NCBI GenBank assembly: GCA_965249485.1
Contig: OZ252239.1
Span: 3,643,587 to 3,707,586 of the forward strand
Direction of reading: 5' to 3'
Length of the DNA stretch: 64,000 nucleotides
Source of the DNA: a bacterium
Lineage (GTDB): Bacteria; SM23-31
The position numbers were made by a program, and so were the translations under genes. The notes beneath the pieces were generated by a model that saw only the letters and a list, made by a program, of their open reading frames with translations, had not been told where the DNA came from and made no database searches. How positions within the stretch are numbered: position 1 is the first letter of the stretch; every line of letters starts with the position of its first letter. Positions 11,254 to 33,957 of this stretch are shown here, piece by piece.

Positions 11254-11539
11254 TGTGAAACTCCAATAATATTAGAATGTCATTGAGACAAATTAAAGAA
11301 CGATTTAATAATACCACATTTTATTATTATTATAAATACGCAATACACTGAACAGAGTTTTCATCCACTGTACATTTCGCATTGTTGTGATTAAAATCAT
11401 GGAAAAAACAGCGGATTAATTCCTGTTAAATTATATAATGGTTTATAGAATATAAGACAAAAAACTATAAAACTGATTATATCACAGGAAAAATACTGTG
11501 ATATTTTTTAGTATTTTGTTTTTGTGTTTATGATTATCT

Positions 11540-11890
11540 TCATTTTATTTGTGCAGTTTTATCGCCCTCACTCAAAAGTATTTTATTCTCTTCTTGGAGA
11601 ACCTTACTAAAATATACACCAAAGATATTTAAAAATAATATTGGCCAGACATAAATATTTTGCTCAACTTTATAGATAGCTATTGTGATAAAAAATCCGA
11701 ACAGTGTAAATTCATAGAAAAGCATAGTATCAAAGACTTTTTTAAGCCAATAACCAATTGGTGTGCCTTTATCTCTAATCCTGGCAAGAGAGCCATCAAG
11801 ACAATCTAAAAAATGTTGTATTTCATTTATAACTCCAGCAATTATAAAACTTATATAGTTTGCCCGGAATATTAGATAAAATATCGTCAA
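11540..11890 (-). pseudogene. CDP-alcohol phosphatidyltransferase-family gene, N-terminally truncated paralog (copy A)
   Basis: 116 aa. Retains the DG(x2)AR(x8)G(x3)D signature (LDCLDGSLARIRDKGTPIGYWL). Lacks the ~70 N-terminal residues present in the 235-aa paralog at 16126–16833, and an upstream in-frame stop confirms the truncation. Confidence 0.5.
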
Positions 11891-12026
11891 AGCAAAAACT
11901 GTCTAAAAATTGTAATCTGATTGGGAGTTATCCGGGAATTTTTCATTAAAAGAGCAACTTTTCTTGCCGATCTTTCAAAAATATCCTTTCTTTCATCAGG
12001 AGAACCAAATATTACCGGAAATCGCA

Positions 12027-13478
12027 TTATTGTTTTTCTCCAATTAATTCAGCAAGTACTACTCTGTCATTATGGTCAAATCCTTTTAGGAGCAATAAAA
12101 TTAATGTAAATAATAAAAGTCCGAATATGATTGTTATATAATAAGAAAAAGACATCCCAAAAATCACAATCAGTATTCCAGAGGATGCCACAATCGGTTT
12201 AATCATATTTTTGAATGCCGTTATAATAAGTAATCTTATATCAGAAATGAATATCCCGGTAATGATAATTGAAATGTACGAAAATACTACTGCTAATGAT
12301 GCTCCAATGATTCCAAACGCTGGAATAAGTAAGATATTTAGTAAAATAAACAAACTCCCGCTTATTAATTCTAATACTAATGGGTACATTTGTTTATCGC
12401 TTGCTATTAAAGTTGAGTTTAAAAATACAGATACAAAAATAAATACAAGTGAAAACATCAATATCTGCGCAGGGATAACGGCCATAATATATTGCTCTTT
12501 AAAAAGGAACACAATTATATTTTCCATATATACGTAAAAATATATCATAATGGGAATTGCAAGTATAGTTAAATATTTTATGGAAAGACCAAAGACATTC
12601 ATAAATACATCACGATTTTCAATGTATTTTTTAGCAAGAACAGGTGCCAATGTAATATTAAGAATAGCAGGGATAACGGTGAATACTGCTGGGATTCTCC
12701 ATGCAACAGAAAAAAGTGCAACCTGATCCGAAGTCATATAAAATTCGATGATCAGAACAGCAACATTTAACTTGATTATATAAAAAACGGCACTTAACAA
12801 AATTGGAAATGATTTCTTGAGGAGATTAAGGAATTCCGTTATATTAATACTGAAGCGGGGCCGTGGAAATAACTTTAAATAGAAAAGAGCAATACATATA
12901 AAACCCGGTAGGTCACAAAGTCCCACAGCCAGAATTAAATAATAAAATGAGCTATTACTTGTAAAAATAATCCATATTGAAGCAAGAAATATCAATCTGC
13001 CAAGAATGTTGAATAAGACTATATACATTATCTTAAAATTAACAACATACATTATTTCCCATATTTTTCTAAATGATTTGATTTTTGCAGAAAATAAAAT
13101 AAAAGGTGTGGCGATTAAGATTAGTCTGGTAGTTTCGGAAGTGTAACCAAACTGAGAATGTAACAAAAGAAATATGCTATAAGAAATGATAATTAGTATG
13201 ATACTGAAAAGTCCAGCAAATGTGAGACAAATACCCATTAATTGTGAGGATAAAGAAGTGTTTCGTGCAATTTCTCGCTGAATAATACTCGTCATACCAA
13301 AATCAGCAAAAACAGCAAATAATGTAAGATAAGCGATAATGAAATTATACTGACCGAATTGATCTTGTGAAAGGAAACGACTCAACCAAATAAATATATA
13401 AAGCTCAATTATTCGTGTAATAATGCTTTCAGAGAGAAAAAGAAGGGAATTTTTTGCTGCAACTCTAACATGAGCCAT
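12027..13478 (-). CDS. Polysaccharide biosynthesis/export protein, MOP-superfamily Wzx-like flippase
   Basis: 483 aa with ~12–14 TM helices. N-terminal region is typical of the PST family. Confidence 0.7.
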   Translation of the reverse strand: MAHVRVAAKNSLLFLSESIITRIIELYIFIWLSRFLSQDQFGQYNFIIAYLTLFAVFADFGMTSIIQREIARNTSLSSQLMGICLTFAGLFSIILIIISYSIFLLLHSQFGYTSETTRLILIATPFILFSAKIKSFRKIWEIMYVVNFKIMYIVLFNILGRLIFLASIWIIFTSNSSFYYLILAVGLCDLPGFICIALFYLKLFPRPRFSINITEFLNLLKKSFPILLSAVFYIIKLNVAVLIIEFYMTSDQVALFSVAWRIPAVFTVIPAILNITLAPVLAKKYIENRDVFMNVFGLSIKYLTILAIPIMIYFYVYMENIIVFLFKEQYIMAVIPAQILMFSLVFIFVSVFLNSTLIASDKQMYPLVLELISGSLFILLNILLIPAFGIIGASLAVVFSYISIIITGIFISDIRLLIITAFKNMIKPIVASSGILIVIFGMSFSYYITIIFGLLLFTLILLLLKGFDHNDRVVLAELIGEKQ

Positions 13479-13598
13479 AATATAAATCTATAAATTTATT
13501 GATTAATATTGACATAATTGTGTTCAGCAATTTGAATTTAGTTAATAATTTGCTATTTCAAGAAATTAGTTTCAAATTATATGAAAAATAATTGTTAG

Positions 13599-14735
13599 TT
13601 ACATTATATCTAATAATAGTGTTTTTATTTTTTTCTTTGTTATTATTCTTGGATTATTCTTCAACCTTTGCGTATTAATGTTCTTAGCAATTTTTTCAAT
13701 GTCATAATTAGAACGTATTCCAAGTTCAGTCAGTTTTGTAGACAATCCGATATTACACATCATTTTTTTTATTTTAATCTTTATATCACTAACCCCGGTA
13801 ATATCCATTAAAGTACTCAGTTCTTTAATAACACTTTTTACATATTCTACGCCTCGAGCATCAATAACATCTTGGGATGACACATTACTATTGTAAATAA
13901 ATATTGGAGTTAAAGTAAGTGCCACTGCATGTCCATGCGGAATATTATAGTATGAGGTCATAGGATAGGAAATAGCATGTAGTGCAGTTGTTTTAGTAAT
14001 ATTGATTGCTTTTCCCGAAAGGTGAGATGCATTTAACATCACTTCAGCGGTATCCCTCGTAGGATTGTTTACCGCGCATTCAATTGTCCCTAAAATCTGT
14101 TTAATTGCTTGTTTAGAATAAATTTTTGATTCATCAGTTGAATGTATACTCCAATATGATTCAATAGCTTGGCAAAGAGCATCCATACCAGAAGCAGCCG
14201 CAACTTGTTTAGGCATATTAACACAAAACTGGGGATCTAATAGGGCAACATCAGGCTGAATACATTCATGCATAATTGAGTATTTTTTATACCCATCATA
14301 TATAACTGCAAAGTGTGTTGATTCACTACCAGAACCCGAAGTAGTTGGTATTGCTATAATAGGAACTTTTTTTTTTATAATCTTTTTATTAGATCGGATA
14401 AAATCTTGCACTCCTAAAGATTGTACAGCAAGCACACTAATCAACTTTGCCATATCTATCACACTACCACCACCGATAGCAACGATTATATCCTGATTAT
14501 CTTTTTTAAAAAGTGTTACTCCTCTTTGCACATCTTCAATTTTTGGATTAATTTCAAAATCAAAAAACTTATGAACGATGTAAGAATTTAATACTTTACT
14601 TACAACTTTTTCAGCACCGCTACTTTTAAATGAATTGTTTCCAGTAACAAGAAAAACATTTTTGCACTTAAAGGATTCAAGTATACTTTTCAAATGTATA
14701 ATACTATTATATCCTGAGATTTCTGTTTGATTCAT
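13599..14735 (-). CDS. Iron-containing (group III) alcohol dehydrogenase; candidate phosphonoacetaldehyde reductase (FomC/PhpC-like)
   Basis: 378 aa. Fe-ADH motifs GGGSVIDMAK and the His-rich metal site (HGHAVA). Located between PEP-mutase copies and the phosphonopyruvate decarboxylase. Confidence 0.7.
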   Translation of the reverse strand: MNQTEISGYNSIIHLKSILESFKCKNVFLVTGNNSFKSSGAEKVVSKVLNSYIVHKFFDFEINPKIEDVQRGVTLFKKDNQDIIVAIGGGSVIDMAKLISVLAVQSLGVQDFIRSNKKIIKKKVPIIAIPTTSGSGSESTHFAVIYDGYKKYSIMHECIQPDVALLDPQFCVNMPKQVAAASGMDALCQAIESYWSIHSTDESKIYSKQAIKQILGTIECAVNNPTRDTAEVMLNASHLSGKAINITKTTALHAISYPMTSYYNIPHGHAVALTLTPIFIYNSNVSSQDVIDARGVEYVKSVIKELSTLMDITGVSDIKIKIKKMMCNIGLSTKLTELGIRSNYDIEKIAKNINTQRLKNNPRIITKKKIKTLLLDIM

Positions 14736-14786: not shown

Positions 14787-15606
14787 TTAAGCATATAACT
14801 TGAGGAGATCATTAATTGAAATACACTTTTTTTCTGCTTCCAAAGATCGTCCATTAAGAAGAATTGTTTCAGCAGTTTTTTTCATGATTGGATATGCACT
14901 TCTAAGAAGTTGATTTGCATATATAACAATATTCACTCCTAATTCTTTTAATGCAGTTTCTGTTAGATTGTTATATTTTGTAGAAATTGCGACAAGGGGA
15001 ACCCGTTTTTCAATTTGAGAATATTCCTGATAAAATGAGAGGATTTGCTGAGGAGTTTTTTCATTACTGTGGATCATGATTCCATCTGCACCAGCCTCGA
15101 TATAAGCATGTGCTCTTTTCAAAGCACCGTTTAAATCAGATCCGTGAATTAGACTTTCAATTCGACCAATAATCATAAAATCATTTGTGATCTGAGCTTG
15201 TTTCCCTTGAGATATTTTATAATGAAAAACTTTCAATAGAATCTTGAGTTTTTTTAAAGCCAGATTTCATTAATGAATTCTTTTTTAAAACTATTTGGTC
15301 ATCAATTATGACTGCTGTAACACCCATTCGTTCTAAAGTTTTTACTATATGAACAAATTGTTCTGGATGGACACCCCTATCTCCTTCAAAAATTGTCGGT
15401 TTTGTAGACGCTTTTAAAATTTGATTGGTAGTTTCAATTCTTGAAGAAAAATCGACATGCTCAAAATCTACTTTACCTTTTGAAAGACAGACAGTTTGGT
15501 TGCTAATCCAAATTCCATCAAATTCCTTAATAATATTATCAACTGTTACTCTGGTGTTTTCAACGATTAATCCTGAAATGCCGTTATGAGCTTCTAATAT
15601 TCGCAC
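14787..15606 (-). pseudogene. PEP mutase domain remnant (copy B), disrupted by a frameshift; EDK motif changed to DDQ
   Basis: Two overlapping ORFs, 15217–15606 and 14787–15236, in different frames. Together they align end-to-end with the C-terminal PEP-mutase part of copy A. The catalytic-loop sequence reads IIDDQIVLKKNSL where copy A has [13 protein letters not shown]. Confidence 0.6.
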
Positions 15607-15633: not shown

Positions 15634-16077
15634 TTATTTTTTTACTTTAGGGTTTTGTGGGATACCTAACACTCTTATTTTTTCATTCAGCAGTGTCGAG
15701 GATATTCCAGGAGTATATGGTATCTCAACTAATTCCCCATTCCACTCTTTTAAAGTATGTATAACTCGTGCTCTAATTTCTTTCTGTACTCCAGTTTTCC
15801 AATCATCGCCATGGACAACATAGTCGGGTTTCATTTTTCTTATATTCGGAATATAATCAAGCGTTTTCTGGGGTAGAACGTTTATAACTCCTTTGATACT
15901 TTGAATAACTGTTTTTCTTTGTTCATATGACATATAAGGCAATCGTTTGTAACCTGCAATCGCTTCATCAGTCAACAATCCTATTGTTACTTCTCCCAAT
16001 TTTCGAGCATGATTGATAATATTTATATGTCCGGGATGAATGAGATCAGCACTCATTCCAACGTAAACTTTCTTCAT
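15634..16077 (-). CDS. Cytidylyltransferase domain protein (copy B), severed from its PEP-mutase domain by an in-frame TAA
   Basis: 147 aa, ~70% identical to the N-domain of copy A, with the HxGH motif IHPGHINII. The TAA at 15634–15636 is in frame with the downstream mutase remnant. The linker is homologous to the copy-A interdomain linker. Confidence 0.6.
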
Positions 16078-16125: not shown

Positions 16126-16833
16126 TTATGTATATCTTTGCTCTTTGAAGTGAAGTACTGTTAAACTTGCATACCTTAACCACTGGATTTGTCTGAAAAC
16201 GGCAATTACTATCATTGCTATTAGAAGAGGATTTATTTTAAGATATGAATAGAGTGGTTCGTAAAATATCATACAAAAATAGATAAACTGTGGGTACCAT
16301 ATAAAGATTTTAAAAATCAATTTGCTGAATTTGCTTCTTTTCTTATCCTGGATTACAATATCTTTTCTACTCCGGTTTTTTAAATTTATATATGCGTCTA
16401 AAAATATTTCTTTAAATAGAAATCCAAAAGTATTAAAAAATAACACTAACCATATTATCGGATTATTTTCGATTTTATAAATTGCTAAGGACAAAAAGAA
16501 TCCAAATAGGCTAAAATCACTAAACAACAATAAATCCACCTTCATTTCCAACCAATATCCAAATTTAGTTTCCATTTTATTTAGTCTTGCCAGTTGTCCA
16601 TCAACGCAATCTAAAAGATAGTGGAATTCACAAAGTATTCCGGCAATTATAAAATATTGATATTCTGCTTTATAAAGCAAAAAATACAGTACTATTGATA
16701 GTGGTTGTCTGAATAATGTTACATGATTAGGCTTTATCTTAGTATTTTTTAAATAATAAGCAATTTTTTTTCCGCATTTGTTAAAGACACTGACTCTGTC
16801 TGCAGGATTTCCAAAAATTGTTGGGAACTTCAT
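16126..16833 (-). CDS. CDP-alcohol phosphatidyltransferase-family membrane protein (full length, copy B)
   Basis: 235 aa. Signature LDCVDGQLARLNKMETKFGYWLE. Multiple TM helices. Confidence 0.65.
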   Translation of the reverse strand: MKFPTIFGNPADRVSVFNKCGKKIAYYLKNTKIKPNHVTLFRQPLSIVLYFLLYKAEYQYFIIAGILCEFHYLLDCVDGQLARLNKMETKFGYWLEMKVDLLLFSDFSLFGFFLSLAIYKIENNPIIWLVLFFNTFGFLFKEIFLDAYINLKNRSRKDIVIQDKKRSKFSKLIFKIFIWYPQFIYFCMIFYEPLYSYLKINPLLIAMIVIAVFRQIQWLRYASLTVLHFKEQRYT

Positions 16834-16953: not shown

Positions 16954-17514
16954 TTATATTAAAGAGTTTCTTAGTTGATCTTTTATTTTCTCTGGGGTAT
17001 GACTAACGCGTGCTATTCCCTTGATATTTCCGGATTCCACATTAATCTGCACACAGATCGGACCGTTATTACTTATGATATTTTGAAAATATCTTTCTAA
17101 CTCACTTAATTCTGAAATCGTATTTACTGATACATATCCGGAGCTTTTTGCTATATCCGCAAGGTTAATATCTGAAGTAATGGTTTTCTGCCCGCCGGTC
17201 GAGCTGTACACCTGATTGTCAAAAATTATATGGTAATAGTTTTTAAGTTGCAAAAATCCGGCTAGTGGGAAATTCCCAAGATTCATGAGTGCACTACCGT
17301 CCCCATCAAATACAAAAACCGGAATATCCGGTTTATTAAGAGCAATGCCTATTCCTATAGATGAAGCATACCCCATAGATCCGATCATATAAAAATTGTT
17401 TGCCCTGTCATTGAGCGTAAACACTTCTCGGGAAATCATTCCTGTTGTACATATGATCGGTGCATTGTCAGGTAACACTTTAAAAATAACTTGTAACGCT
17501 TCTATTTTATTCAT
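16954..17514 (-). CDS. Phosphonopyruvate (or sulfopyruvate) decarboxylase, beta subunit (TPP-binding C-terminal domain)
   Basis: 186 aa. TPP-binding GDG…N motif (VFVFDGDGSALMNLGNF). Immediately downstream of the alpha subunit. Confidence 0.7.
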   Translation of the reverse strand: MNKIEALQVIFKVLPDNAPIICTTGMISREVFTLNDRANNFYMIGSMGYASSIGIGIALNKPDIPVFVFDGDGSALMNLGNFPLAGFLQLKNYYHIIFDNQVYSSTGGQKTITSDINLADIAKSSGYVSVNTISELSELERYFQNIISNNGPICVQINVESGNIKGIARVSHTPEKIKDQLRNSLI

Positions 17515-17537
17515 GTCATTTTTAAATCAAATAATAT

Positions 17538-18026
17538 TCAGTCAATTATATTATCTTTTAAGATAGCAGCCACGGGAACCTGTTTTTCGTCCATAACTGC
17601 TATAAGCTCCGAAAAAACAGATTCAATATTATCCTTTTCGAATATTTTATAGGGTATCTTCATTAATTTCAAAAAATTTAACATCTCAGCGCCCATAATG
17701 ATGTGTTCAGGTGCGTCCTTCCCTTGATAGCCTCTCCAGGAAATGATCATGAATACTGGAATTTTGTATATTAAATTGAGAGAAGTAAGTCCATTAACCA
17801 CATTGCCAAGTCCAGAGTTTTGGATTAGTATTCCAGACCTTCTACCCGAAAAATAACCGCCCGTAGCGATTCCCAACGCCCCATCTTCTCTTGTTGCAGG
17901 GATATATGTAAAATCGGAATCGTTCTCAATTTCAATTAAAATTTTCTTGAATATCGAGCACGGAACACCGGAAAGAAATGTTAATCCGTATTTTTTTAAG
18001 TGTGAAGAAAATTCATTTGAATTCAT
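17538..18026 (-). CDS. Phosphonopyruvate (or sulfopyruvate) decarboxylase, alpha subunit (TPP-enzyme N-terminal domain)
   Basis: 162 aa of ComD/Ppd-alpha-like sequence (ATREDGALGIATGGYFSG…ILIQNSGLGN). Clusters with the PEP mutase. Confidence 0.7.
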   Translation of the reverse strand: MNSNEFSSHLKKYGLTFLSGVPCSIFKKILIEIENDSDFTYIPATREDGALGIATGGYFSGRRSGILIQNSGLGNVVNGLTSLNLIYKIPVFMIISWRGYQGKDAPEHIIMGAEMLNFLKLMKIPYKIFEKDNIESVFSELIAVMDEKQVPVAAILKDNIID

Positions 18027-18213: not shown

Positions 18214-19161
18214 CTAGTGTGAAGAGAATTCTTTTATGCACTGTTTGTTAAGATCAATGAAGTCGATTTCTGATAAATTCCACTTGTCATTGTAAAGACT
18301 TTCCGTAATATGATCTGGCCTGCTTGCACCATATATTGCAACATCTATATTGGAATTCCTCAATACCCATGCAACAGACAATTGCACAATCGTTAAATTA
18401 CGTTTTTGTGCAAAAATTTTTATTTTGTCTGTAATTTTAAGGTATTGTCTGAATTTTTCACCTTTAAATTCAGGTTGGTTTTGACGGCTATCGCCATTTT
18501 CAAACTTTGTTCTTGGTGTAAATTTTCCAGATAGTAACCCACGAAATAATGGGCTATATGCAAGAACTCCAATGTTTTTTTCAGCACAGAGAGGTAGTAC
18601 CTCTTCTTCAATTTCTCTTTGAAACAGATTGTATCGCACTTGAACAGTATCGAGACATCCAAGGGATATGTACTGTTTTATGTGGGATACGTCTACATTT
18701 GAAGCTCCAACATAACGTATTTTACCTGACTGTAAAAGATGCTCGAGCGCATTAACTGTATCAGAAATAGGGGTTGAATTATCCGGCCAGTGAGTTTGAT
18801 ATATGTCGATATAATCTGTATTCAATCGTTTGAGACTTTCCTCTACACTTTTCACAATATTAGTATAACTTAGATCGAATTGAGCTTTGCCTTCCTGTGT
18901 TCTTTTAACTCCTACTTTTGTAGCAATTATTACGTTTTTTCTGTTCATACTTAATGCTTCTGCTAATATGCTTTCTGAACGCCAAAATCCGTACACGTTT
19001 GCAGTATCAAAACAGTTTATTCCTATATCTAAAGCCTTATGAACTGTTGCTATAGAATCAGCTTTACTCGGAGCACCTGCGTATTCTACACCAAAATTTC
19101 CGCATCCTAATGCAATTCTTGAAACTTTTATATTAGTTGAACCTAACTGGACAAAAATCAT
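18214..19161 (-). CDS. Aldo/keto reductase family oxidoreductase
   Basis: 315 aa. AKR (α/β)8 fold signatures (GCGNFG…; IDIYQTHWPD). Confidence 0.75.
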   Translation of the reverse strand: MIFVQLGSTNIKVSRIALGCGNFGVEYAGAPSKADSIATVHKALDIGINCFDTANVYGFWRSESILAEALSMNRKNVIIATKVGVKRTQEGKAQFDLSYTNIVKSVEESLKRLNTDYIDIYQTHWPDNSTPISDTVNALEHLLQSGKIRYVGASNVDVSHIKQYISLGCLDTVQVRYNLFQREIEEEVLPLCAEKNIGVLAYSPLFRGLLSGKFTPRTKFENGDSRQNQPEFKGEKFRQYLKITDKIKIFAQKRNLTIVQLSVAWVLRNSNIDVAIYGASRPDHITESLYNDKWNLSEIDFIDLNKQCIKEFSSH

Positions 19162-19274
19162 AATATAAATTGTTTAGTAACAAATAAATCTATTATAAAA
19201 TTAATTTTATAATAGATTTATTGAATGAGTTAACTTCTTGTTGCAAAGTAGTATGGAGGGATATTATTGAGTAA

Positions 19275-19967
19275 TTATTTCATTCTACACCGTGTAGCAA
19301 TCATCTCAAAGAATATTTTTGAGATAATACCTATGCCCCCAAATTTTGATTCTCCTAATTCCCTCTGAAGATAATTTATTCCTATTTGTTTTATTACAAA
19401 TCCTTTTCTGTGCGCTTTGATGAGGCTTTCAGCATCATGAAATCCCCACTTTGACTCAAGTTTAATATCTTCAAATACTTTTGATGAATATAACTTATAA
19501 GAAAAATTTATATCCCGAAGTTTTAAATTAAATAATGATCTAACGAGCCAATTGAATACACCAGAATAAACTTTACGTTTCATACCCTCATTCCGATTTA
19601 AGCGAAATGCTGATACGATATCACATGAATTGATAATATCAAACGCTTTGAAAATATCTTGAAAATCGAATGGTTCATCAGCATCAAACAAAAAGAAGTA
19701 CTCCATCGATGCAGTGGTAATGCCAAGGGATACCGCACTTCCCATTCCTTCTCTTTGCTCTTGATGCACCACTATGACATTGTGAATTTCCCTTTCAAGA
19801 TTGTCTACAATAACTGGTGTATTGTCGGTACTGCCACTTTCAATTATAACAATCTCAAAATTTTCAATACTGTCCTGCAGAATTCTTGCTATTTTTCTGA
19901 CAACTTTATCAACATACTGTTCTTCATTATAGACTGGGAGAATAATAGACACGCTTGATTTTATCAT
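19275..19967 (-). CDS. GT2 glycosyltransferase, polyprenyl-phosphate sugar synthase-like (DPM1/ArnC-like, soluble form)
   Basis: 230 aa. N-terminal ILPVYNEE, and DxD-type motifs (FDAD). Confidence 0.65.
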   Translation of the reverse strand: MIKSSVSIILPVYNEEQYVDKVVRKIARILQDSIENFEIVIIESGSTDNTPVIVDNLEREIHNVIVVHQEQREGMGSAVSLGITTASMEYFFLFDADEPFDFQDIFKAFDIINSCDIVSAFRLNRNEGMKRKVYSGVFNWLVRSLFNLKLRDINFSYKLYSSKVFEDIKLESKWGFHDAESLIKAHRKGFVIKQIGINYLQRELGESKFGGIGIISKIFFEMIATRCRMK

Positions 19968-21937: not shown

Positions 21938-22273
21938 TCAAGCCCCAAAAAGACAACCTGATACTACTAATACTATAATACCATTTTCAGATAGATGGTT
22001 TATTATATTTTTAAATACATCTGAAAGAATTGTGCAAAATTCCAAAGATCCAGCATATAAGATTTTATTAAATTTTTTATTTAAACTAAAATTTTGCAAA
22101 TCAGCAACTTCTGCATTGATACCGCGAGATTGTGTATACTTCACCATCTCATGTGACAAGTCAATTCCATAAACTTCTGCACCATATTCTTTGAGTATTA
22201 ACGAATTATAGCCTGATCCACAACCGCGGTTTAATATGTTATCCCCTTCAATCGGATCAAGTAAGCGCAGCAA
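21938..22273 (-). pseudogene. Class I SAM-dependent methyltransferase fragment
   Basis: Only 111 aa. Motif I (NRGCGSGYNS) lies ~13 aa from the start, which is too short for a complete MTase. Flanked by ~180 and ~390 bp of AT-rich noncoding DNA. Confidence 0.35.
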
Positions 22274-27849: not shown

Positions 27850-28623
27850 CTATTTTTCAGGAAATTTCCCTGTAATAACAATATTGAAACTGAGTTTTTT
27901 TATAATTCCCGGTAAATAACCAATAATAGTATCAAACATAATTGACAATCGACTCAAAGGAACGAATATAAACTGGGGATATAAGATCACTTGTGCGAAA
28001 ATGGGCATGAAGAACCCTTGATAATCGACTGAAATTTCGGTGATACCGTGACTGGAGAAAAGATCTATCAGATATTTTTCGGAAAAAAACTGCTGGTCTT
28101 TAGAATACATCGGATCGATTATTTTACGAATAAAACGCATCAATCTTATGAGAGGATTACTCTTCTGCGGCTCAATTGCCATAAAGACGGCATTCGATTT
28201 TGCCATCCGAACAATAGAGTCCATGACATCCCCAAGTTCAGTCATGTGATGCAATGCCCCTATTGACATAACTACATCCGCGCTATTTTGAGGTAATTCA
28301 CCGGATTTAATATTGCTAGCGATAAACTCAGCTTTTTTATTACCACTATTAAATAGCTGAGCTTCTTTTATAAATTCGTCAGACTGGTCAATTCCAATAT
28401 AACGCTCATACAAACCAGCGAGATACTTTGCCGGCGCACCCACACCGCAACCGATATCCACAATCGTACCTAGCTTTGATATATTCTTTAAGACAGGTTT
28501 TAAGGCAAAAAACAATTGTTTTTTTCGAGCAATCGAGGAGGAGACAACGGAATCTTTCCTTGAGTAGCCATATGCAATATCATCAAAGAGTTTTTTATCT
28601 TGTAATTCCTGCGACATTATCAA
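27850..28623 (-). CDS. Class I SAM-dependent methyltransferase
   Basis: 257 aa. Motif I IVDIGCGVGAPAKYLA. Confidence 0.65.
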   Translation of the reverse strand: MIMSQELQDKKLFDDIAYGYSRKDSVVSSSIARKKQLFFALKPVLKNISKLGTIVDIGCGVGAPAKYLAGLYERYIGIDQSDEFIKEAQLFNSGNKKAEFIASNIKSGELPQNSADVVMSIGALHHMTELGDVMDSIVRMAKSNAVFMAIEPQKSNPLIRLMRFIRKIIDPMYSKDQQFFSEKYLIDLFSSHGITEISVDYQGFFMPIFAQVILYPQFIFVPLSRLSIMFDTIIGYLPGIIKKLSFNIVITGKFPEK

Positions 28624-28728: not shown

Positions 28729-29580
28729 TTATCTCTTTCGAACAATTAAATCGGCAAGAAGGCCAAATATGATTATCATAACCGTAAACAGCGATATAAC
28801 TATCGATTTATCAGTTAATCCCTGCAAGATCACAACATCATAAGTGACCACACCACAGGATAGTATAATAAACATAAAACTTACCGGCAAAAAAACTTTT
28901 AACGGGTTGAAATAAATACTTGTCCTGATCAAAAGAAGTAAAAAATCAATTGCGTTCCGACTTTTTATCTTTGATTTACCCACTCTTTTTTTATAATCAA
29001 TGGGAATATATTTCACCTCATATTTATCACAAAGTAGAGCCATCGTAATAGTAGATGTTAGAGAAAACCCACTGGGAAGAATATGCTGATATTTCAATAA
29101 TAAATCTTTTTTAATGACCCTTAGTCCGGAATTCAGATCTGGTATTACCGTTTCAGTAAGAAAATTTGCGAATTTATTGAGAACCCATTTCGCCGGCTTT
29201 CTGATCATCGGAATATGCACCTCTTTTCCGGTGCGGGCACCGACAACCATATCGAATGCATCGGTAAAGCGGTAAAGTTCAGGTATCTTTTCATTTGGGT
29301 ATGTTCTATCAGCATCAGTAATGCCGATATGATCGAAGTGAGCTTTCTTGACGCCTGAAATGATTGACGCACCATACCCTTTGTTGAATTGGTGTTCAAC
29401 TAATTTCACATCATATTTTGCGATGGTCTCTCGAGTATTATCTGTTGATTTATCATCAACAACTAATATTTCAAAAGGAATATCTGTCGCAGACAAGATC
29501 CTTTGAACTTCCTCGATAACTGAGCCGACACTTTTTTCTTCGTTATAGGCCGGGATTATAATGCTTAAACCTTTGCTCAT
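28729..29580 (-). CDS. GT2 polyprenyl-phosphate glycosyltransferase with two C-terminal TM helices (GtrB/ArnC-like)
   Basis: 283 aa. N-terminal IIIPAYNEE, plus DDKSTD and ITDAD motifs. C-terminal TM pair is typical of bactoprenol-phosphate glycosyltransferases. Confidence 0.7.
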   Translation of the reverse strand: MSKGLSIIIPAYNEEKSVGSVIEEVQRILSATDIPFEILVVDDKSTDNTRETIAKYDVKLVEHQFNKGYGASIISGVKKAHFDHIGITDADRTYPNEKIPELYRFTDAFDMVVGARTGKEVHIPMIRKPAKWVLNKFANFLTETVIPDLNSGLRVIKKDLLLKYQHILPSGFSLTSTITMALLCDKYEVKYIPIDYKKRVGKSKIKSRNAIDFLLLLIRTSIYFNPLKVFLPVSFMFIILSCGVVTYDVVILQGLTDKSIVISLFTVMIIIFGLLADLIVRKR

Positions 29581-29582
29581 TT

Positions 29583-30523
29583 TTATAGTGTTTTCATCCA
29601 GTTATATTGTTGTTCAAGACCCTCTTCCAGAGAAACCGCGGGGCTATAATTAATAAGTTTTACTGCTTTATCAATTTCAGAATAGGTGTGTAAAACATCC
29701 CCTTTTTGCTTTTCCACATATTCGATATTAATATTATCTTTATTACACAACTTTTTCATAATGGCAAACAGGTCATTTACAGATGTTGCTCTATGACTGC
29801 CAACATTGAAACATTCATTGTCCCCGGGGTGGATTGCGCTGGCAATTGTCGCGTTAACAATATCCGTAACATAAGTAAAGTCTCTTTTCTGATTCCCATC
29901 GCCAAAAACTTTTATCGGCTTATTGTTTAAAATGTTTTTTATAAATAGATGAAAAGCCATATCCGGCCTCTGTCGCGGCCCATATACCGTAAAATATCTT
30001 AACCGGACAAAATGGGAATACCATACGCTTTGAAAAATGCGTTGCAGGTGTTTTCCGCGGCTAATTTTGTAACCCCATAAGGCGACAATGGTTTTTTGGG
30101 AGCATTTTCAGGGATGGGCAAAACATCCTGATCTCCGTAGACAGACGATGATGAAGCAAAAACAAATTTCTTTATCTTGTAATTCTTCACCTGATCTAAA
30201 AGATTATTCGTCAATAATACGTTGTTTTCAAGATAGTTATTAAAATAACTGCCCCAACTTTGACGAACTCCAGGTAAAGCGGCTAAGTGAAAAATATACT
30301 CTGTGTCTTTTAAAATATCATCCAGTCTAAACTTTAATAAATTTTCATTTAGAAATGTAAACTTCCTATTATTAAGTAAATTTTTCAGATTATCTTTTTT
30401 GATCTCGGCAGAATAGTTATCTGTAAAAGCATCAATTCCAACAACTTGAAACTTCTGATTGAGCAATTCTTCCGAAAGATGAGAGCCGATAAATCCCGCG
30501 GCTCCTGTTACCAAAGCTTTCAT
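29583..30523 (-). pseudogene. NAD-dependent epimerase/dehydratase (UDP-sugar 4-epimerase/decarboxylase-like), with a frameshift
   Basis: The N-terminal ORF (MKALVTGAAGFIGSHL…YGIPILSG*) and C-terminal ORF (MAFHLF…) are in different frames. Reading through the junction in the other frame restores the conserved LRYFTVYGPRQRPDMAFH segment. This implies a 1-nt indel near 29990–30000. Confidence 0.65.
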
Positions 30524-30742: not shown

Positions 30743-32392
30743 TCAAAATTCCATTGTTGAAACCAACTTTTTATGAAGCACCATTAGTAAGAACAGAATG
30801 GAGACTATCACTGTACCGGTAATAGCTTGCAGGTACCAACGATCCTGAAATATTTTAAATACCTGCACATACCATAGATCGAACCAATCAAATCCCTTCA
30901 ATGATCTCCAAAAAACCGTTCCTGTCGTGAATTTTTTAAGGTGGATATTGTATTGCATTGTCATGTCTTTGATAGCATCTTTATCAAACACAATAAGAGG
31001 AAAGTTTAATGATTCGCCTGTAGCCAACCGGTTTATCCCTGAGAATAACAAGTAATATGATCCTAATATTTGGGAATATTGGGGCATATCTATCCTTGTA
31101 TAATAATCATGAGGGGATTCCTTTACAAGAAAACGCTCATAAGCTGAAAAATTCATGACAGTGGATGGCAGCTGTATGAATAATCCTACAGTTGCCGCTA
31201 TTAAAAGTATTTTTTGGAAATTGATCTTTCCGGGAATATTACCATATTTTATTAAATAGATGACCGGAAGGCACAACACTGGTATTATTGGCACAAAATA
31301 TCGCGCCCCCCACGCGCCAAAACTTGCCCAGTGCGTTGAAAATGAGAAAAATAGTACATAAGGGATACAGGCTGAGACATAGAACAGAAACAGACCCTTA
31401 TTGTTCGCATACAATTTTCTAATACCAAAAAAAGAGAGGATGAGAATTGGATTAAAGATCAAAAGGCCTTTGCCCATACTTAAAAATATTTTTTGAAAAT
31501 TTGCGATCCCATAATAAACGTTAAACATCAACTCGGTTGATGTTGTCCCTTCCGTTCCCCGCACACTGTAGCCGGTTTGGAGAACATTGCCAAATCGCAC
31601 ATAATTATATAGCAGAAACAGTGACACTGGAATAATAAAACCAAGTATAAACTTAGCTCCGTATTGCAATACTTTATCTTTTTTGCTTTGATAAATAATG
31701 TAAAACAGGTATATGGAAAATGCCGGAAAAAGTAACACAGTATACAATTTCGTTATTAAACAGCTTCCGGTAAAGATCCCGGCATAAAGAAGCAATGAAG
31801 ATTTCCGCTCATATTCAAATTTCACGAGCGTAAATAGTGCCAGGAGAATGAATAGTGCCGCTAACGGCTCTCCAAAACCAGATTTGACGGCATAAGTAAA
31901 TAGCATTGTACCGAATGTCAGACATCCTGTTATCAGCGCAGATTTTTTATTGTCCACTTCCAGTGATTTTAGTAGAGAAAAAAATACGGTGCAGATCAGT
32001 GCCGTAACAAAAATATTTTGCATGGAAAAGAAAAATACAAGGAGAAAGTCTCTCGGAATGAATGATAAAATCTTGGTAAAAATAAGTCCAGTTCCATAAA
32101 AAAGAGAACCGACAATTATTTGACCTAATCCATGTTTGCTATATACTCTGTTATTTTGAGATGATAGGAACCGTATTTCCTCTGCAACAGCATTAAAGGA
32201 ACCTGTCAATTCACCCGCATTCTTTTCCTCAACGGAATCCCCAAGGTCAAAATTGCCGTCTTTAAAAACACTCTCAACAGTATAATAATTCCACAGCGCG
32301 TCTCCTCCAACATGACCTGGGAAAAACAGGAAATATGTCGTCAGGATAAACAGGAAAATAAGCAGTTTGGATTTATTTGCTTTTGAGATCAT
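30743..32392 (-). CDS. GT-C fold membrane glycosyltransferase, PMT/ArnT-like (GT39/GT83-like)
   Basis: 549 aa with ~11 TM helices. Has the PMT_2-like hydrophobic core and a C-terminal extracytoplasmic domain. Confidence 0.5.
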   Translation of the reverse strand: MISKANKSKLLIFLFILTTYFLFFPGHVGGDALWNYYTVESVFKDGNFDLGDSVEEKNAGELTGSFNAVAEEIRFLSSQNNRVYSKHGLGQIIVGSLFYGTGLIFTKILSFIPRDFLLVFFFSMQNIFVTALICTVFFSLLKSLEVDNKKSALITGCLTFGTMLFTYAVKSGFGEPLAALFILLALFTLVKFEYERKSSLLLYAGIFTGSCLITKLYTVLLFPAFSIYLFYIIYQSKKDKVLQYGAKFILGFIIPVSLFLLYNYVRFGNVLQTGYSVRGTEGTTSTELMFNVYYGIANFQKIFLSMGKGLLIFNPILILSFFGIRKLYANNKGLFLFYVSACIPYVLFFSFSTHWASFGAWGARYFVPIIPVLCLPVIYLIKYGNIPGKINFQKILLIAATVGLFIQLPSTVMNFSAYERFLVKESPHDYYTRIDMPQYSQILGSYYLLFSGINRLATGESLNFPLIVFDKDAIKDMTMQYNIHLKKFTTGTVFWRSLKGFDWFDLWYVQVFKIFQDRWYLQAITGTVIVSILFLLMVLHKKLVSTMEF

Positions 32393-33377
32393 ATCTCCCC
32401 AATAGATTGATTATACCGCCAATGCAGCCTTCTATAACGAATGCAAAAAATATAAGCAGCGAATAGCTGAACGCCTGATTTGCCGTGACTCCGACTGTGG
32501 CAAAAAAGAAAATGTTTCCTGATTCTCTGATGCCTATTCCATTCAGTGAAACCGGCAGCACCGTCAACATGAATATGATTGGTGAAAAAATAAAAAAGTA
32601 TCGCCAGTGAACCGTCAGGTTTGTCATTTGCGATATTGTATAAAAACTTAAATAATTAAATATCTGCATGAGAAGAGATAGGGAGAAAACGGTAAGCAAA
32701 AACTTTTTGTCTTTTTTGAACGAAACAACCGTTCGAAAGAACTTTTCAATTTTTTTTCCAATCTCCCGGAATTCAAATCGTTTTAAGATACGACATACCA
32801 TGTTCACTGTAGTTTCACGGTTAAAAAGATAGAGGACCACCATAAAAACGACCGGAACAAGCACAAGAAAAAATCGCATAGAACCAAGGAACGACAATTC
32901 GTCCATAAAAATGAGTACGACTACAAAAACCAGAAAGAAATTCGATGCAATACCTAATATCCTGTCAAATAAGATAGAAGAAAATGCCGGGGTCTTTTTT
33001 TGCTCATTTTTCGATACAATGTATGCTTTAACTATATCTCCGCCATATTGCGAGGGAAGGAACTGGCTATAAAATCTCCCTATGAAATACAGTTTAAATA
33101 CTCCTATAATATTATGATTTATATTTTGCTTTCTCAAAACACATTGCAATCGAAAGCTAATGAGCAAAATTGTTGAGAACCGGAGCAGCACAAAAGGTAC
33201 CACATACTCTACGTTTAACCTTTGAATGATCGCTGATATGCTCTTCACATCAATACTCGGATGCCACAAGATCATTGCGATGACAGCAACGCTAAAAACT
33301 ATTCTTAGTAAGTTTCCATATTTCCCGATGATCTGTTTGAGCATTATGGTCTCAGAGCAATGACAATTTACAAACAA
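32373..33377 (-). CDS. Flippase-like membrane protein (UPF0104 / lysyl-phosphatidylglycerol-synthase TM-region family)
   Basis: 334 aa with ~8 TM helices. Overlaps the downstream GT-C gene by 20 nt. This partnership is typical of GT2/GT-C glycosylation modules. Confidence 0.5.
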   Translation of the reverse strand: MFVNCHCSETIMLKQIIGKYGNLLRIVFSVAVIAMILWHPSIDVKSISAIIQRLNVEYVVPFVLLRFSTILLISFRLQCVLRKQNINHNIIGVFKLYFIGRFYSQFLPSQYGGDIVKAYIVSKNEQKKTPAFSSILFDRILGIASNFFLVFVVVLIFMDELSFLGSMRFFLVLVPVVFMVVLYLFNRETTVNMVCRILKRFEFREIGKKIEKFFRTVVSFKKDKKFLLTVFSLSLLMQIFNYLSFYTISQMTNLTVHWRYFFIFSPIIFMLTVLPVSLNGIGIRESGNIFFFATVGVTANQAFSYSLLIFFAFVIEGCIGGIINLLGRYDLKSK

Positions 33378-33813
33378 GGTAATATAACAATTTTTTGCGG
33401 GATTCTACCTAATATTATTAGAGTAAACAGAGCGCCTGAATTAAAAAACAAGCAGTACCCTCCTATATCACGCTGCAATAGTAGTATATCTGCTATATTC
33501 TGCTTGCATTTCAATTTTCTAATGAATATCATTAAGCGCTTCGGGCTTATGCAAAATTGATACTTGCTTAAGAGTAATTTTTTATGTTATGAATTCCGAT
33601 GGATCAGATCCGCCTTACGAACAACGATAGCTGGGACGGTATGCCGTCCTTGTCACCGGCAAAAAAGTAAACCGCATGAATGTATAGCAAATTTACACAG
33701 CGGTCAACATCATATATTCAGGTTGCATCATCACAATGACCCCCTGTGCCGATTTGCAAATATTTATAAATATATCCAAATAATCATCTACTGTGTTGTG
33801 TCACCTTCTGCTA

Positions 33814-33852
33814 TGTGCTAATATGTTGAAATGCTTTCAACATATTAGCACA
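33814..33852. promoter_or_regulatory. Perfect 39-bp palindrome (18-bp arms, 3-nt spacer) in a divergent promoter region; candidate operator
   Basis: TGTGCTAATATGTTGAAA-TGC-TTTCAACATATTAGCACA. Lies ~105 bp upstream of the ATG at 33958 and inside the 530-bp gap between divergently oriented genes. Confidence 0.55.
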
Positions 33853-33957
33853 ATCCGGTCAACACTTTTTGTTATCTCGAAGATCAAAACATGAGGAACA
33901 GCAACCGTGTTCCACTACTATATAATGAAACTAAAAATAGTCGGAAAGGAAAAAGCG

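Follow-up and report, generated by a model that had tools for sequence, protein, structure and literature searches.

The AT-rich block at about 9936–34050 of the analysed window (the whole 64,000-nucleotide stretch from contig OZ252239.1) is probably best explained as a surface-glycan decoration allele with an attached phosphonate cassette; the block as a whole would have been exchanged, through recombination or horizontal transfer, as O-antigen and capsule loci are. It lies between a YpdA-like Pyr_redox_3 gene and a BNR/sortilin hydrolase gene, and was compared, in one metagenome-assembled genome of the window's species, with six loci, all from one sister species. As an observation on the lineage, SucC reaches no more than 64% identity with any protein beyond its own clade, named matches lying at about 61%. 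The edges of the variable block (about 9935/9936 and about 34051) come from the sister genome alignment. The sequence-only reading had begun the island at 11254, which is an edge in GC only and leaves out the sole intact PEP mutase of the locus, at 9961–11253. To the left of the block, 90% homology to the sisters begins at 9935, and the junction is marked by a terminator-like hairpin read directly in the sequence (9884–9920, minus strand; CCGGTTAA..TTAACCGG and a T-run), which lies 3′ of the last gene of the locus and is found in the window and in one sister locus (L035). On the right, homology to the sister (91%) resumes at 34052. The upstream intergenic region and right junction (33378–34051), for which a promoter role is conjecture, is mostly unalignable to the sister, with short identical patches remaining, for instance TATATTCTGCTTGCATTTCA at about 33495–33518.

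The GC content of positions 11254–33906 is 0.327, against 0.416 (1–9935) and 0.448 (34051–64000) on either side (Mann-Whitney p = 2.7e-10 for 1-kb windows within the island against those beyond it). The island genes have a GC3 of 0.293 and the flank genes one of 0.411/0.444, while the tetranucleotide correlation with the flank profile is 0.75–0.83 inside and 0.85–0.93 outside. The AT-richness claimed in the sequence-only reading is confirmed. The lowest GC3 values belong to soluble enzymes (Fe-ADH 0.21, AKR 0.25, NTP-transferase 0.25), which indicates that the bias is not merely an amino-acid effect of membrane proteins. The near-uniform orientation was also read correctly, as all block genes are on the minus strand with the sole exception of 22668–23405 (plus strand).

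Five genes form a syntenic core common to both species, encoding a UPF0104 flippase-like protein, a PMT_2-like GT-C, an epimerase, a GT2 with a TM pair and YfhO. The first gene of the locus (32373–33377) encodes the UPF0104/LPG_synthase_TM flippase-like membrane protein (PF03706, 134 bits; TIGR00374 "flippase-like domain", 79.5 bits, cutoff 43.2), which is 54% identical to its sister ortholog. GT-C2 (30743–32392, 549 aa), 50–53% identical to its ortholog, is a candidate PMT_2-like GT-C by profile comparison: hhalign against the GT-C1 family gives a probability of 96.6% (E=6e-10), and it matches the LA_3751/LA_3752 putative glycosyltransferase family of NCBIfam (1.9e-15) and PMT_2 (E=0.002). 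The membrane-linked GT2 (GT2tm, 28729–29580; PF00535, 91 bits) is CsbB/GtrB/ArnC/AglJ-like, has two hydrophobic segments (about 222–282) and is 62% identical to its ortholog. Its nearest NCBIfam models are AglJ (98.9 bits), Dol-P-hexose transferase, ArnC, PpgS and PgfS, and it is predicted to be a polyprenyl-phosphate sugar synthase. The YfhO-family GT-C glycosyltransferase (25111–27525, 804 aa) belongs to the core, while GT-C1 (23417–25063), from a rare PMT_2-like subfamily, is private to the window genome. Taken alone, GT-C1, GT-C2 and YfhO all fall under the Pfam thresholds; they were identified by way of their families, and the GT-C fold of GT-C1 and YfhO was confirmed in the predicted structures. 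Outside the core, a soluble GT2 (19275–19967, 230 aa; PF00535, 86 bits), with a DAD motif in its translation and no hydrophobic segments, is similar to polyprenyl-phosphate hexose synthases (nearest NCBIfam models Dol-P-hexose transferase, ArnC, PgfS and PpgS). Both GT2 enzymes, as well as the Fe-ADH and the nucleotidyltransferase described below, score under every NCBIfam equivalog cutoff. The Wzx-like MOP-family flippase (12027–13478, 483 aa; PF01943, 49.2 bits, cutoff 28.2; also PF13440) has many hydrophobic segments and is 29% identical to the sister Wzx, whose gene is opposite in strand to its neighbours. The sequence-only reading had listed a Wzx-like and a UPF0104 flippase-like protein, one soluble and one C-terminally membrane-anchored GT2, two ArnT/PMT-like GT-C proteins and a YfhO-like one. 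All of these assignments stand, that of GT-C2 by profile comparison, and the gene content supports the GT2/flippase/GT-C logic of extracytoplasmic glycosylation drawn from them.

Genes for sugar supply and tailoring lie in between. The nucleotidyltransferase (20039–20785; PF00483, 124.8 bits) is of the sugar-1-phosphate type, but the RfbF likeness proposed for it found no specific support: it has no NCBIfam equivalog, and its best match, under cutoff like all the others, is of the mannose-1-phosphate guanylyltransferase type. The polysaccharide deacetylase (20912–21757; PF01522, weak DUF3473) reaches 70 bits, under cutoff, with the XrtA-system deacetylase model. Three SAM methyltransferases, one of them a fragment, had been reported and were recovered in the domain search, all three of class I and two of them complete (22668–23405, plus strand; 27850–28623, between GT2tm and YfhO and with no counterpart at that position in the sisters). 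The fragment (21938–22273; Methyltransf_11/25) retains only the core, about residues 32–150 of a 257-aa full-length enzyme. The deacetylase, the aldo-keto reductase and an epimerase pseudogene had likewise been named correctly. The last is the NAD-dependent epimerase/dehydratase of the core (29583–30523), which is split by a 1-nt deletion near 29995–30000 relative to the intact, 317-aa sister proteins. The lesion lies at CCGG, with no long homopolymer, and an assembly error is still possible. Gene splits also vary between the loci of the sister assemblies, and the single-indel breaks of the window (epimerase, and PEP mutase copy B at a T5 run) may be long-read assembly errors.

The phosphonate module recognised in the sequence-only reading is well supported, but its duplication had been missed: the cassette consists of two diverged copies, at a spacing of 4824 nt, with complementary decay. 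Copy A of CT-PEPM (9961–11253) is an intact fusion protein of Fom1 type, a cytidylyltransferase (PF01467) joined to a PEP mutase (TIGR02320, 398.5 bits, cutoff 319.6), with an intact EDKxxxxxNS motif (as in PMC6697681) and an N-domain matching the Fom1 CyTase structure 5x3d (E=7e-53). It has no counterpart in any of the sister loci, and appears to be the only functional PEP mutase of the locus. Indeed, copy A departs from the family-invariant sites at 2/126, while the PEP mutase domain of copy B (14787–15606), a decaying remnant, is altered at 19/93, carries DDQIVLKKNS where EDKxxxxxNS is expected, and is 56.5% identical to the family (73.5% for copy A); its frameshift at the T5 run could, alone, be an assembly error. 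The cytidylyltransferase of copy B (15634–16077, 147 aa; PF01467, 3e-16) stands alone, stopping at a TAA within the former linker. It is as close to the family as that of copy A (69.0% and 69.3% identity), with three of 33 invariant sites altered, two of them in the linker. The CDP-alcohol phosphotransferase is intact in copy B (16126–16833, 235 aa; PF01066, 43.3 bits, cutoff 22), with 4–5 hydrophobic segments and the signature DxxDGxxAR(x8)G(x3)E(x3)D bearing one Asp-to-Glu change. In copy A (11409–12027) it is a pseudogene in pieces over frames −3, −2 and −1 (tblastn, query copy B), whose residual 116-aa ORF matches PF01066 and has Lys at the third acidic position of the signature.

Phosphonopyruvate decarboxylase (Ppd, 16954–18026) is split into alpha (17538–18026) and beta (16954–17514) parts scoring 124.7 + 196.8 bits with TIGR03297 (whole-protein cutoff 312.5). 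The beta half scores better for Ppd than for sulfopyruvate decarboxylase, and the halves are 34–40% identical to the single-chain Ppd adjoining CT-PEPM in loci L032/L033. The iron-containing alcohol dehydrogenase (Fe-ADH, 13599–14735; PF00465, PF25137; TIGR03405 Phn_Fe-ADH, 174 bits, under cutoff) shares 43.5% identity along its whole length with the Fe-ADH of Ignavibacteria loci L033/L034, where it directly follows CT-PEPM and Ppd. It is predicted to be a PhpC-like phosphonoacetaldehyde reductase yielding 2-hydroxyethylphosphonate (HEP), but could act on a different aldehyde instead. The aldo-keto reductase (AKR, 18214–19161; PF00248, 243 bits) is not among the genes of CT-PEPM cassettes in other genomes. 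CT-PEPM, Ppd and Fe-ADH are found together in glycan loci from other phyla as well, alongside a CDP-alcohol phosphotransferase or a TagF-like transferase. The PEP mutase, Ppd, Fe-ADH and cytidylyltransferase are together expected to make CMP-2-hydroxyethylphosphonate. Fom1, HEP and PF01467 fusions are treated in earlier work (PMC6697681, PMC8942020), and pepM cassettes are known to be horizontally exchanged, island-borne and found beside surface-glycan genes (PMC8931226).

Copy B of the CDP-alcohol phosphotransferase is predicted to transfer a phosphonyl group from the CMP-phosphonate. Enzymes of this family (PF01066) are the classical makers of lipids and phospholipid head groups, and the nearest NCBIfam models of this one are (archaetidyl)inositol-phosphate synthases and PgsA. 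It is therefore conceivable, though rather unlikely, that HEP or another phosphonate is moved from its CMP conjugate to diacylglycerol or another lipid, independently of the glycosylation genes. The phosphotransferase also occurs at this position in the sister species, which has no pepM there, and phosphonolipids have been predicted as the products of large groups of pepM neighbourhoods that include CDP-OH genes (PMC8942020). Against this, the gene sits amid Ppd, the cytidylyltransferase and a Wzx-type flippase in a glycan locus, other phyla pair CT-PEPM, Ppd and Fe-ADH with a TagF-like polyol-phosphate transferase and glycosyltransferases, and HEP has been reported on exopolysaccharide (PMC8942020).

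That the locus as a whole is an exchanged allele is indicated by its divergence. The flanks are about 90.5% identical to the sister species, with a dS of 0.19–0.38 (seven flank genes), whereas dS is 0.94 for YfhO (dN/dS 0.19) and the synonymous sites of GT2tm, GT-C2 and the UPF0104 gene are saturated (pS 0.76–0.82, GT-C2 at 0.76). Wzx and the CDP-alcohol phosphotransferase are just 29–36% identical between species, content outside the five-gene core differs, and neither locus holds remnants of the other species' private genes. The sequence-only reading had called the block horizontally acquired and strain-variable. The discordant dS does point to horizontal or recombinational exchange, but not to an inserted island, and the sister-species loci are 96–98.7% identical to one another, so that variation is seen between species only. 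Position and core are conserved and syntenic; alleles and accessory genes are not. The exchange is read from a comparison of two species.

Considering that locus position, core gene order and low GC are common to both species, and that GC1 and GC2 are lower too, reflecting hydrophobic, Lys/Asn/Ile-rich proteins, the locus might have been inherited vertically, without exchange, and owe its AT-richness and fast evolution to the membrane proteins that it encodes, to relaxed constraint or to diversifying selection. We regard this as improbable, since synonymous divergence that is 3-fold (YfhO) or saturated (three core genes) relative to the seven flank genes is not explicable by faster protein evolution. 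The dN/dS of YfhO indicates purifying selection, the lowest GC3 is found in soluble enzymes, and Wzx is differently oriented, at an identity of only 29%. The classical genomic island of the sequence-only reading, a mobile or integrative segment inserted at an otherwise empty site, would account for the low GC, the deviant tetranucleotide usage and the many genes without a counterpart in the sister species, and pepM cassettes are known island travellers (PMC8931226). It is nevertheless largely refuted and has little probability left: a homologous low-GC glycan locus with the five syntenic core genes occupies the site in 6/6 sister loci, so the island is not simply present or absent. No integrase, transposase or other mobility domain was found in block ORFs of at least 100 aa, no tRNA gene in the locus and no direct or flanking repeats at the borders, and the junctions lie in intergenic DNA adjoining the conserved hairpin. 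A small-molecule phosphonate natural product of the fosfomycin or phosphinothricin kind is very improbable, for although fosfomycin biosynthesis opens with the same four steps (Fom1-type CT-PEPM, Ppd, FomC/PhpC-like Fe-ADH, cytidylylation; PMC6697681), the domain search of the island found no Fom3 B12-radical-SAM methyltransferase, HppE-type epoxidase, HEPD/MPnS dioxygenase, NRPS or ATP-grasp ligase, and the neighbours are glycosyltransferases and flippases.

The exchanged decoration allele has known parallels. O-antigen and capsule loci are replaced by recombination between conserved flanks, as is E. coli rfb between galF and gnd. Like them, the locus occupies a fixed site, has a GC below that of the genome and no mobility genes, and differs between close relatives in non-orthologous content, with alleles far older than the flanks. 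Unlike them, it varies between species only in what was compared, and lacks a Wzy polymerase, chain-length regulator, initiating phosphoglycosyltransferase and ABC exporter, which argues for decoration and not repeat-unit assembly.

In multi-component transmembrane glycosylation, a GT-A enzyme, a flippase (GtrA or Wzx) and a GT-C (YfhO or PMT_2) act together (PMC8035078, PMC5836110), as in CsbB/GtcA/YfhO (B. subtilis, S. aureus LTA), GtlA/GtlB and GttA/GttB (Listeria), GacI/GacK(Wzx)/GacL (group A carbohydrate), and GtrA/B/V and ArnC/ArnT in Gram-negatives (PMC8035078, PMC5836110, PMC11127046). The locus shares with these a membrane-linked GT2 near a YfhO-family GT-C, PMT_2-type GT-C enzymes, a Wzx-type flippase and the occurrence of several GT2/GT-C sets per genome. 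It differs in having UPF0104 (MprF-flippase-like) and no small GtrA-type flippase, three GT-C for only two GT2, methylation and a phosphonate cassette combined with the glycosylation genes, and a host lineage that is probably non-Firmicute. UPF0104 (PF03706) with a PMT/STT3-like GT-C and an AglD-like GT2 is a conserved archaeal and bacterial neighbourhood (Makarova et al. 2015, PMC5898192), in which the flippase role in glycosylation is likewise a prediction. The core similarly opens with UPF0104 and then a PMT_2-like GT-C, includes an AglJ/AglD-like GT2 and, as in some archaeal examples, has a polysaccharide deacetylase nearby, but it is bacterial, with UPF0104 unfused to GT2 and YfhO added. 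The cassette resembles the Fom1-type early pathway, as described in PMC6697681 (after Cho et al. 2017), in the PF01467–PEP mutase fusion with its EDKxxxxxNS motif. The Ppd and PhpC-like Fe-ADH recall the HEP branch of Fom1 and phosphonyl-tailoring (Pnt) systems, and the second, separate cytidylyltransferase and cell-surface setting recall some Pnt clusters (Li & Horsman 2022, PMC8942020). The transferase is however of the CDP-alcohol type and not LicD-like, Ppd consists of two subunits, the duplicate copies of the cassette have decayed in complementary ways, there is no AEP transaminase, and the product is a prediction.

In the mechanism which we propose, substrates, HEP product, acceptor, topology and flippase assignments are all predictions. 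The nucleotidyltransferase and the epimerase (possibly inactive here) would supply nucleotide sugars in the cytoplasm, GT2tm and the soluble GT2 would load single sugars onto polyprenyl phosphate, and the UPF0104-type and/or Wzx-type flippase would carry the lipid-linked sugar across the membrane, where YfhO, GT-C1 and GT-C2 would transfer sugars onto a putative envelope acceptor at the outer face, the methyltransferases and deacetylase tailoring them. PEP mutase copy A would convert PEP to phosphonopyruvate, split Ppd would yield phosphonoacetaldehyde, and Fe-ADH would reduce it to HEP. The Fom1-type cytidylyltransferase (fused copy A and stand-alone copy B) would form the CMP-phosphonate, from which the phosphotransferase of copy B would pass the phosphonyl group to a hydroxyl on an acceptor that is either lipid-linked or itself a lipid. 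The locus is thus a surface-glycan decoration system of a documented type, and not a new kind of system.

The GC content between 11254 and 33906 is 0.327, compared with 0.416 on the left and 0.448 on the right, and 1-kb windows inside and outside the block differ in GC with p = 2.7e-10 (Mann-Whitney). GC3 is 0.293 inside against 0.41–0.44 outside, and the tetranucleotide correlation to the flank profile falls to 0.75–0.83 within the block. The lowest GC3 values (0.21–0.25) are those of its soluble enzymes, so the AT signal is not accounted for by the amino acids that membrane proteins favor. A sequence-only reading had described an AT-richer block of about 11.3–33.9 kb with almost all genes on the minus strand, and all three composition measures set this block apart from its flanks; the gene at 22668–23405 is the single exception in strand. 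The borders given in that reading (11254–33906) were nevertheless shifted by comparison with a sister species. Homology between the two ends at window position 9935 on the left and restarts at 34052 on the right, so the variable block spans approximately 9936–34050 and includes an intact PEP-mutase gene (9961–11253) that had been left out.

The sister species was reached through a right-flank gene, which led to one related complete chromosome (OZ244870.1), and through the 90% cluster of a left-flank gene, which led to five further loci of the same species; the comparison of exchange therefore covers two species. The sister flanks are 98–99% identical among themselves and about 90.5% identical to the window, and all sister loci carry a low-GC block (0.30–0.34) at the same site. 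Its gene order is UPF0104, GT-C, epimerase (intact), GT2 with C-terminal membrane segments (GT2tm), YfhO, methyltransferase, GT4, methyltransferase, Wzx, CDP-alcohol phosphotransferase (CDP-OH_PT) and Pyr_redox_3. The sister species has no PEP mutase, phosphonopyruvate decarboxylase (Ppd), iron-dependent alcohol dehydrogenase (Fe-ADH), AKR, soluble GT2, nucleotidyltransferase, deacetylase or GT-C1, while the window lacks the GT4 of the sister. The expected difference between related genomes is thus found for the accessory genes, the window's cassette being missing in the sisters, but not for the site and a five-gene core, which are common to both. Remnants of each species' private genes were sought in the other as an indication of the direction of gain or loss, and none were found.

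The five core genes have 50–74% protein identity between the two species, compared with 85–96% for the flank genes. By the Nei-Gojobori method, dS is 0.19–0.38 for seven flank genes and 0.94 for YfhO (25111–27525; dN/dS 0.19), while GT2tm (28729–29580), GT-C2 (30743–32392) and UPF0104 (32373–33377) are saturated (pS 0.76–0.82). This high synonymous divergence implies that the alleles are far older than the species split; they are still under purifying selection. O-antigen and capsule loci in model bacteria occupy a fixed site, have low GC and hold alleles far older than the surrounding genome. The discordant history of locus and flanks appears, from these alignments, to be the signature of a similar whole-locus allelic exchange at a fixed site. 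Of the horizontally acquired island proposed earlier, it is accordingly the exchange that stands and the insertion that does not: the site is filled in all sister loci, no ORF of at least 100 aa from 9.9 to 34 kb has a mobility domain (integrase or transposase), the window contains no tRNA gene, and no direct repeats were found at the borders. Strain-level variability is not supported by these loci either: within the sister species the locus is 96–98.7% identical, conserved like the flanks. There is minor within-species variation in content, since some sister genomes have an extra methyltransferase gene between CDP-OH_PT and the left-flank gene (intact in L038 at 8947–9615, split in L037 at 8946–9615). 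A metagenome scan with the left-flank gene returned only distant relatives, none above 59% identity, in which the anchor has no glycan genes next to it. For SucC, identity to proteins from beyond the window's own clade does not exceed 64%, the named matches (Halanaerobium, Atribacteria) being at about 61%.

Both species retain a terminator-like hairpin (CCGGTTAA..TTAACCGG with a T-run after it), at 9884–9920 on the minus strand of the window and at 9871–9908 of the sister locus L035. It lies directly at the left homology edge and may terminate the transcript of the locus as well as mark the limit of recombination. Near the other edge, a 20-nt patch (TATATTCTGCTTGCATTTCA, at about 33495–33518) has the same sequence in both species within otherwise unalignable intergenic DNA; located upstream of the first locus gene, it is possibly a promoter or regulatory element. 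Two further features are a perfect 18-nt inverted repeat with a 3-nt loop (33814–33852, between the locus and a BNR hydrolase gene), not kept in the sister species, and an AT-only perfect 23-nt palindrome in the intergenic region between the AKR and soluble GT2 genes (19183–19222). Scans for promoters (75, compared with 68.4±9.5 in shuffled sequence) and terminators (6, compared with 4.7±2.0) gave no excess, and an Rfam search gave no match. Outside the block, synteny with the sisters stops left of DoxX (window 1–2500, L035/L037 17600–21000), where the place of the window's NifU and Mrp/ApbC genes for Fe-S assembly is taken in the sisters by a 601-aa protein with weak matches to OMP beta-barrels. 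On the other side are three tandem M14 zinc carboxypeptidase paralogs (621, 566 and 572 aa; 45802–51196), with neighbors of the secreted-hydrolase type (BNR glycosidase-like, FGE-sulfatase domain, MBL, alkaline phosphatase, M20 and amidase).

The block ORFs were scanned against Pfam and NCBIfam, and the gene list drawn up earlier is almost wholly supported: a Wzx-like MOP flippase, Fe-ADH, a split TPP decarboxylase, an AKR, two GT2 enzymes, a sugar-1-phosphate nucleotidyltransferase (for which the label "RfbF-like" has no specific support), a polysaccharide deacetylase, a split epimerase, UPF0104/LPG_synthase_TM and three methyltransferases, one of them fragmentary. GT2tm matches PF00535 with 91 bits and has two C-terminal hydrophobic segments, while the soluble GT2 (19275–19967) has none. 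For both, the closest models are those of polyprenyl-phosphate hexose synthases (AglJ, Dol-P-hexose transferase, ArnC, PpgS, PgfS), with scores under the equivalog cutoffs. GT2tm thereby has the sequence features of the membrane-linked GT-A/GT2 enzymes that act as polyprenyl-phosphate sugar synthases, and a lipid phosphate would be its acceptor. [quoted passage not shown]

Three large polytopic proteins each fall under the Pfam thresholds when taken alone, and were therefore tested separately. The YfhO protein of the window matches only PTPS_related (6.6e-4) and not PF09586 at E≤0.001, but PF09586 is matched by 30 of its 32 aligned relatives, including a 73%-identical ortholog (best E 8.5e-15); its best named match is from candidate division KSB1 (41%). 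GT-C1 (548 aa; 23417–25063) belongs to a rare subfamily, with three representatives at E≤1e-30 in an exhaustive search among 1.84 billion. It scores 24.4 bits against PMT_2 (PF13231), just under the gathering score of 26.1, and this profile is matched by 31 of 41 relatives (best E 1.6e-10). A DEG motif (E42) follows the first helix in at least 90% of the relatives, so that the profile match and the acidic motif in the first extracytoplasmic loop that characterize the PMT_2 subfamily are both present. In its predicted model (pLDDT 91.8), the first 21 structure matches in a row are all GT-C proteins (AglB 21.9, Pmt4 21.3, ArnT 19.8), after which the scores drop to 7. GT-C2 (549 aa) matches PMT_2 more weakly (E=0.002), but is linked to the GT-C1 family by hhalign (96.6%, E=6e-10), and also to the Leptospira LA_3751/2 putative glycosyltransferase family of NCBIfam. 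Searches of PDB sequences with GT-C1, GT-C2 and the GT-C1 profile gave no match, and only the fold comparison succeeded. The candidate flippases are the Wzx-like protein (PF01943) and UPF0104 (PF03706, TIGR00374), all above threshold, while no GtrA-family protein was found in the locus. The earlier assignment to GT2/flippase/GT-C extracytoplasmic glycosylation was right as to the type of system; its chemistry can be proposed by analogy. The locus differs from a Wzx/Wzy-dependent O-antigen or capsule assembly cluster in that its ORFs match no initiating phosphoglycosyltransferase, Wzy polymerase or chain-length regulator, leaving Wzx as the only member of that set. Its core fits the UPF0104, PMT-like and AglD-like neighborhood predicted previously (PMC5898192).

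The earlier reading had noted a phosphonate module but missed its duplication. The intact cytidylyltransferase-PEP mutase fusion (CT-PEPM) of copy A (9961–11253) combines PF01467 and PF13714 in one ORF. It scores 398.5 bits against the TIGR02320 PEP mutase model (cutoff 319.55) and carries the Ppm-specific EDKxxxxxNS motif (motif and Fom1 function as described in PMC6697681), and its N-terminal domain (residues 4–137) matches the crystal structure of the Fom1 CyTase domain (5x3d) with E=6.8e-53. Copy A is accordingly predicted to be a PEP mutase and a bifunctional CyTase-Ppm of the Fom1 type. The Fe-ADH neighbor and the lack of an AEP transaminase suggest 2-hydroxyethylphosphonate (HEP) as the cytidylyltransferase substrate; some PF01467-Ppm fusions are found in AEP clusters (PMC8942020). 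The halves of the split decarboxylase score 124.7 and 196.8 bits against TIGR03297, a simple sum of 321.5 for a whole-protein cutoff of 312.5. The alpha half scores slightly higher as sulfopyruvate decarboxylase alpha (133.8), and it is the pepM context that favors Ppd. The Fe-ADH matches PF00465 and PF25137, but its 174 bits against TIGR03405 (cutoff 423.7) are no better than those for lactaldehyde reductase and similar models. Along its entire length it shares 43.5% identity with the Fe-ADH that comes immediately after CT-PEPM and Ppd in two Ignavibacteria loci (L033/L034). The HEP branch is defined by a PhpC-like Fe-ADH, and HEP conjugates have been purified from exopolysaccharide (PMC8942020). 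CDP-OH_PT of copy B (16126–16833) scores 43.3 bits against PF01066 (cutoff 22), and its signature D(x)2DG(x)2AR(x)8G(x)3D(x)3D is complete save for the third Asp, which is Glu in the sister species too; profile and signature together place it in the PF01066 family. A fosfomycin-type antibiotic cluster would need the genes acting after CMP-HEP (Fom3, a B12 radical SAM enzyme; FomD; Fom4/HppE), but no radical-SAM, cupin or HppE-like ORF is present in the island, the radical-SAM gene at 3099–4187 being part of the conserved flank.

The pair CDP-OH_PT and CT-PEPM occurs in two copies, in register and with a spacing of 4824 nt. At about 59% amino acid identity, copies A and B are old paralogs, and their decay is complementary. 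In copy A, CDP-OH_PT (about 11409–12027) is a pseudogene, frameshifted across three frames and with Lys at the site of the third Asp. Copy B shows the opposite pattern, with an intact phosphotransferase and a fusion interrupted both by a TAA in the linker and by a frameshift. As the frameshift falls within a T5 run, where the assembly may have erred, it was not taken as proof of a pseudogene, and an independent test was used, based on 126 sites with a conservation of 98% or more across 116 homologs. Copy A is changed at 2 of these and copy B at 22, of which 19 (out of 93) are clustered in the mutase domain and include E259D and K261Q of the EDK motif (DDQIVLKKNS). The identity to the family is 56.5% for the copy B mutase domain compared with 73.5% for copy A, while the cytidylyltransferase domains are at 69.0% and 69.3%, respectively (3 of 33 sites changed in copy B). 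Because conservation differs in this way between domains, copy B appears to survive as a stand-alone 147-aa cytidylyltransferase beside what remains of a decaying mutase. Across the two cassettes, each activity is still represented by one intact copy. Single-indel disruptions may be assembly errors, and the split of the epimerase may be such an error or a true pseudogene, since the sister long-read assemblies vary in gene splits. The flank gene DUF7790 (7497–8619) is represented by two overlapping ORFs in the window and most sister assemblies and is intact (376 aa) in L037, which suggests recurrent indel errors in long-read assemblies or a variable gene.

CT-PEPM is 70–73% identical to homologs in Nanoarchaeota, Woesearchaeota, Asgard archaea (Hodarchaeales), WOR-3, Ignavibacteria, Patescibacteria and Firmicutes (proteins P0122–P0240). 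Such identity is unusually high between domains and indicates, as far as sequence comparison goes, strong constraint and wide horizontal spread, the latter in line with published data (PMC8931226); it also points to the spread being recent. In the Ignavibacteria loci, GT2, CT-PEPM, Ppd, Fe-ADH and a TagF-like transferase follow one another within a glycan locus, and in another MAG the fusion lies among three CDP-OH_PT genes, a Wzx and B12-radical-SAM enzymes. The L032 locus (GCA_053533695.1, JAIYMO010000012.1, 1–20912) contains three B12-radical-SAM and three CDP-OH_PT genes, CT-PEPM, Ppd and Aminotran_5, as well as Fe-ADH, Wzx, DUF2079 and sulfate-activation genes (ATP sulfurylase, APS kinase), and may produce methylated and/or sulfated phosphonate decorations.

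The enzyme identities, folds and motifs, together with gene linkage, lead us to propose the following scheme. PEP would be converted to phosphonopyruvate by copy A, then to phosphonoacetaldehyde by the split Ppd and to 2-HEP by the Fe-ADH. The fused and stand-alone cytidylyltransferases would give CMP-HEP, from which CDP-OH_PT copy B would move the phosphonyl group onto a hydroxyl. Alongside this, the GT2 enzymes would load sugars onto polyprenyl phosphate, the UPF0104- and/or Wzx-type flippase would translocate the lipid-linked sugars, and YfhO, GT-C1 and GT-C2 would transfer them to a putative envelope acceptor, with the methyltransferases and the deacetylase tailoring the product. This fits the multi-component transmembrane glycosylation systems reviewed in PMC8035078. 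The main open alternative is that the cassette product is a phosphonolipid instead of a phosphonoglycan. How enzymes move activated phosphonates onto cell surfaces has yet to be characterised (PMC6697681). We tentatively raise the possibility, itself rather doubtful, that CDP-OH_PT copy B (16126–16833) is the long-sought phosphonyl transferase of the surface "Pnt" pathway, esterifying Fom1-type CMP-HEP onto a polyprenyl-linked sugar or glycan for Wzx-type export. If so, the locus would provide a compact seven-gene route from PEP to an HEP-decorated envelope glycan, the class that is the dominant marine high-molecular-weight phosphonate, and the decay of copy B, with its cytidylyltransferase kept and its mutase lost, would reflect selection for extra nucleotidyl-activation capacity.

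All components can be assigned to described families, and there are precedents for the architecture as a whole, so known systems are extended here and none is newly revealed. What the locus adds is a Fom1-type HEP cassette physically tied to an extracytoplasmic GT2/flippase/GT-C glycosylation system. Together with L032–L034, the CT-PEPM loci of other genomes, it nominates CDP-OH_PT and TagF-like enzymes as interchangeable candidates for surface phosphonyl transfer, and its few, clearly bounded genes lend themselves to heterologous reconstitution. Two leads are the most useful, namely the compact HEP cassette, which includes a candidate phosphonyl transferase, and the decay of its duplicate in one domain but not the other. 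For the organism itself, the locus shows the evolutionary logic of O-antigen and capsule loci in a lineage known from metagenome assemblies only.
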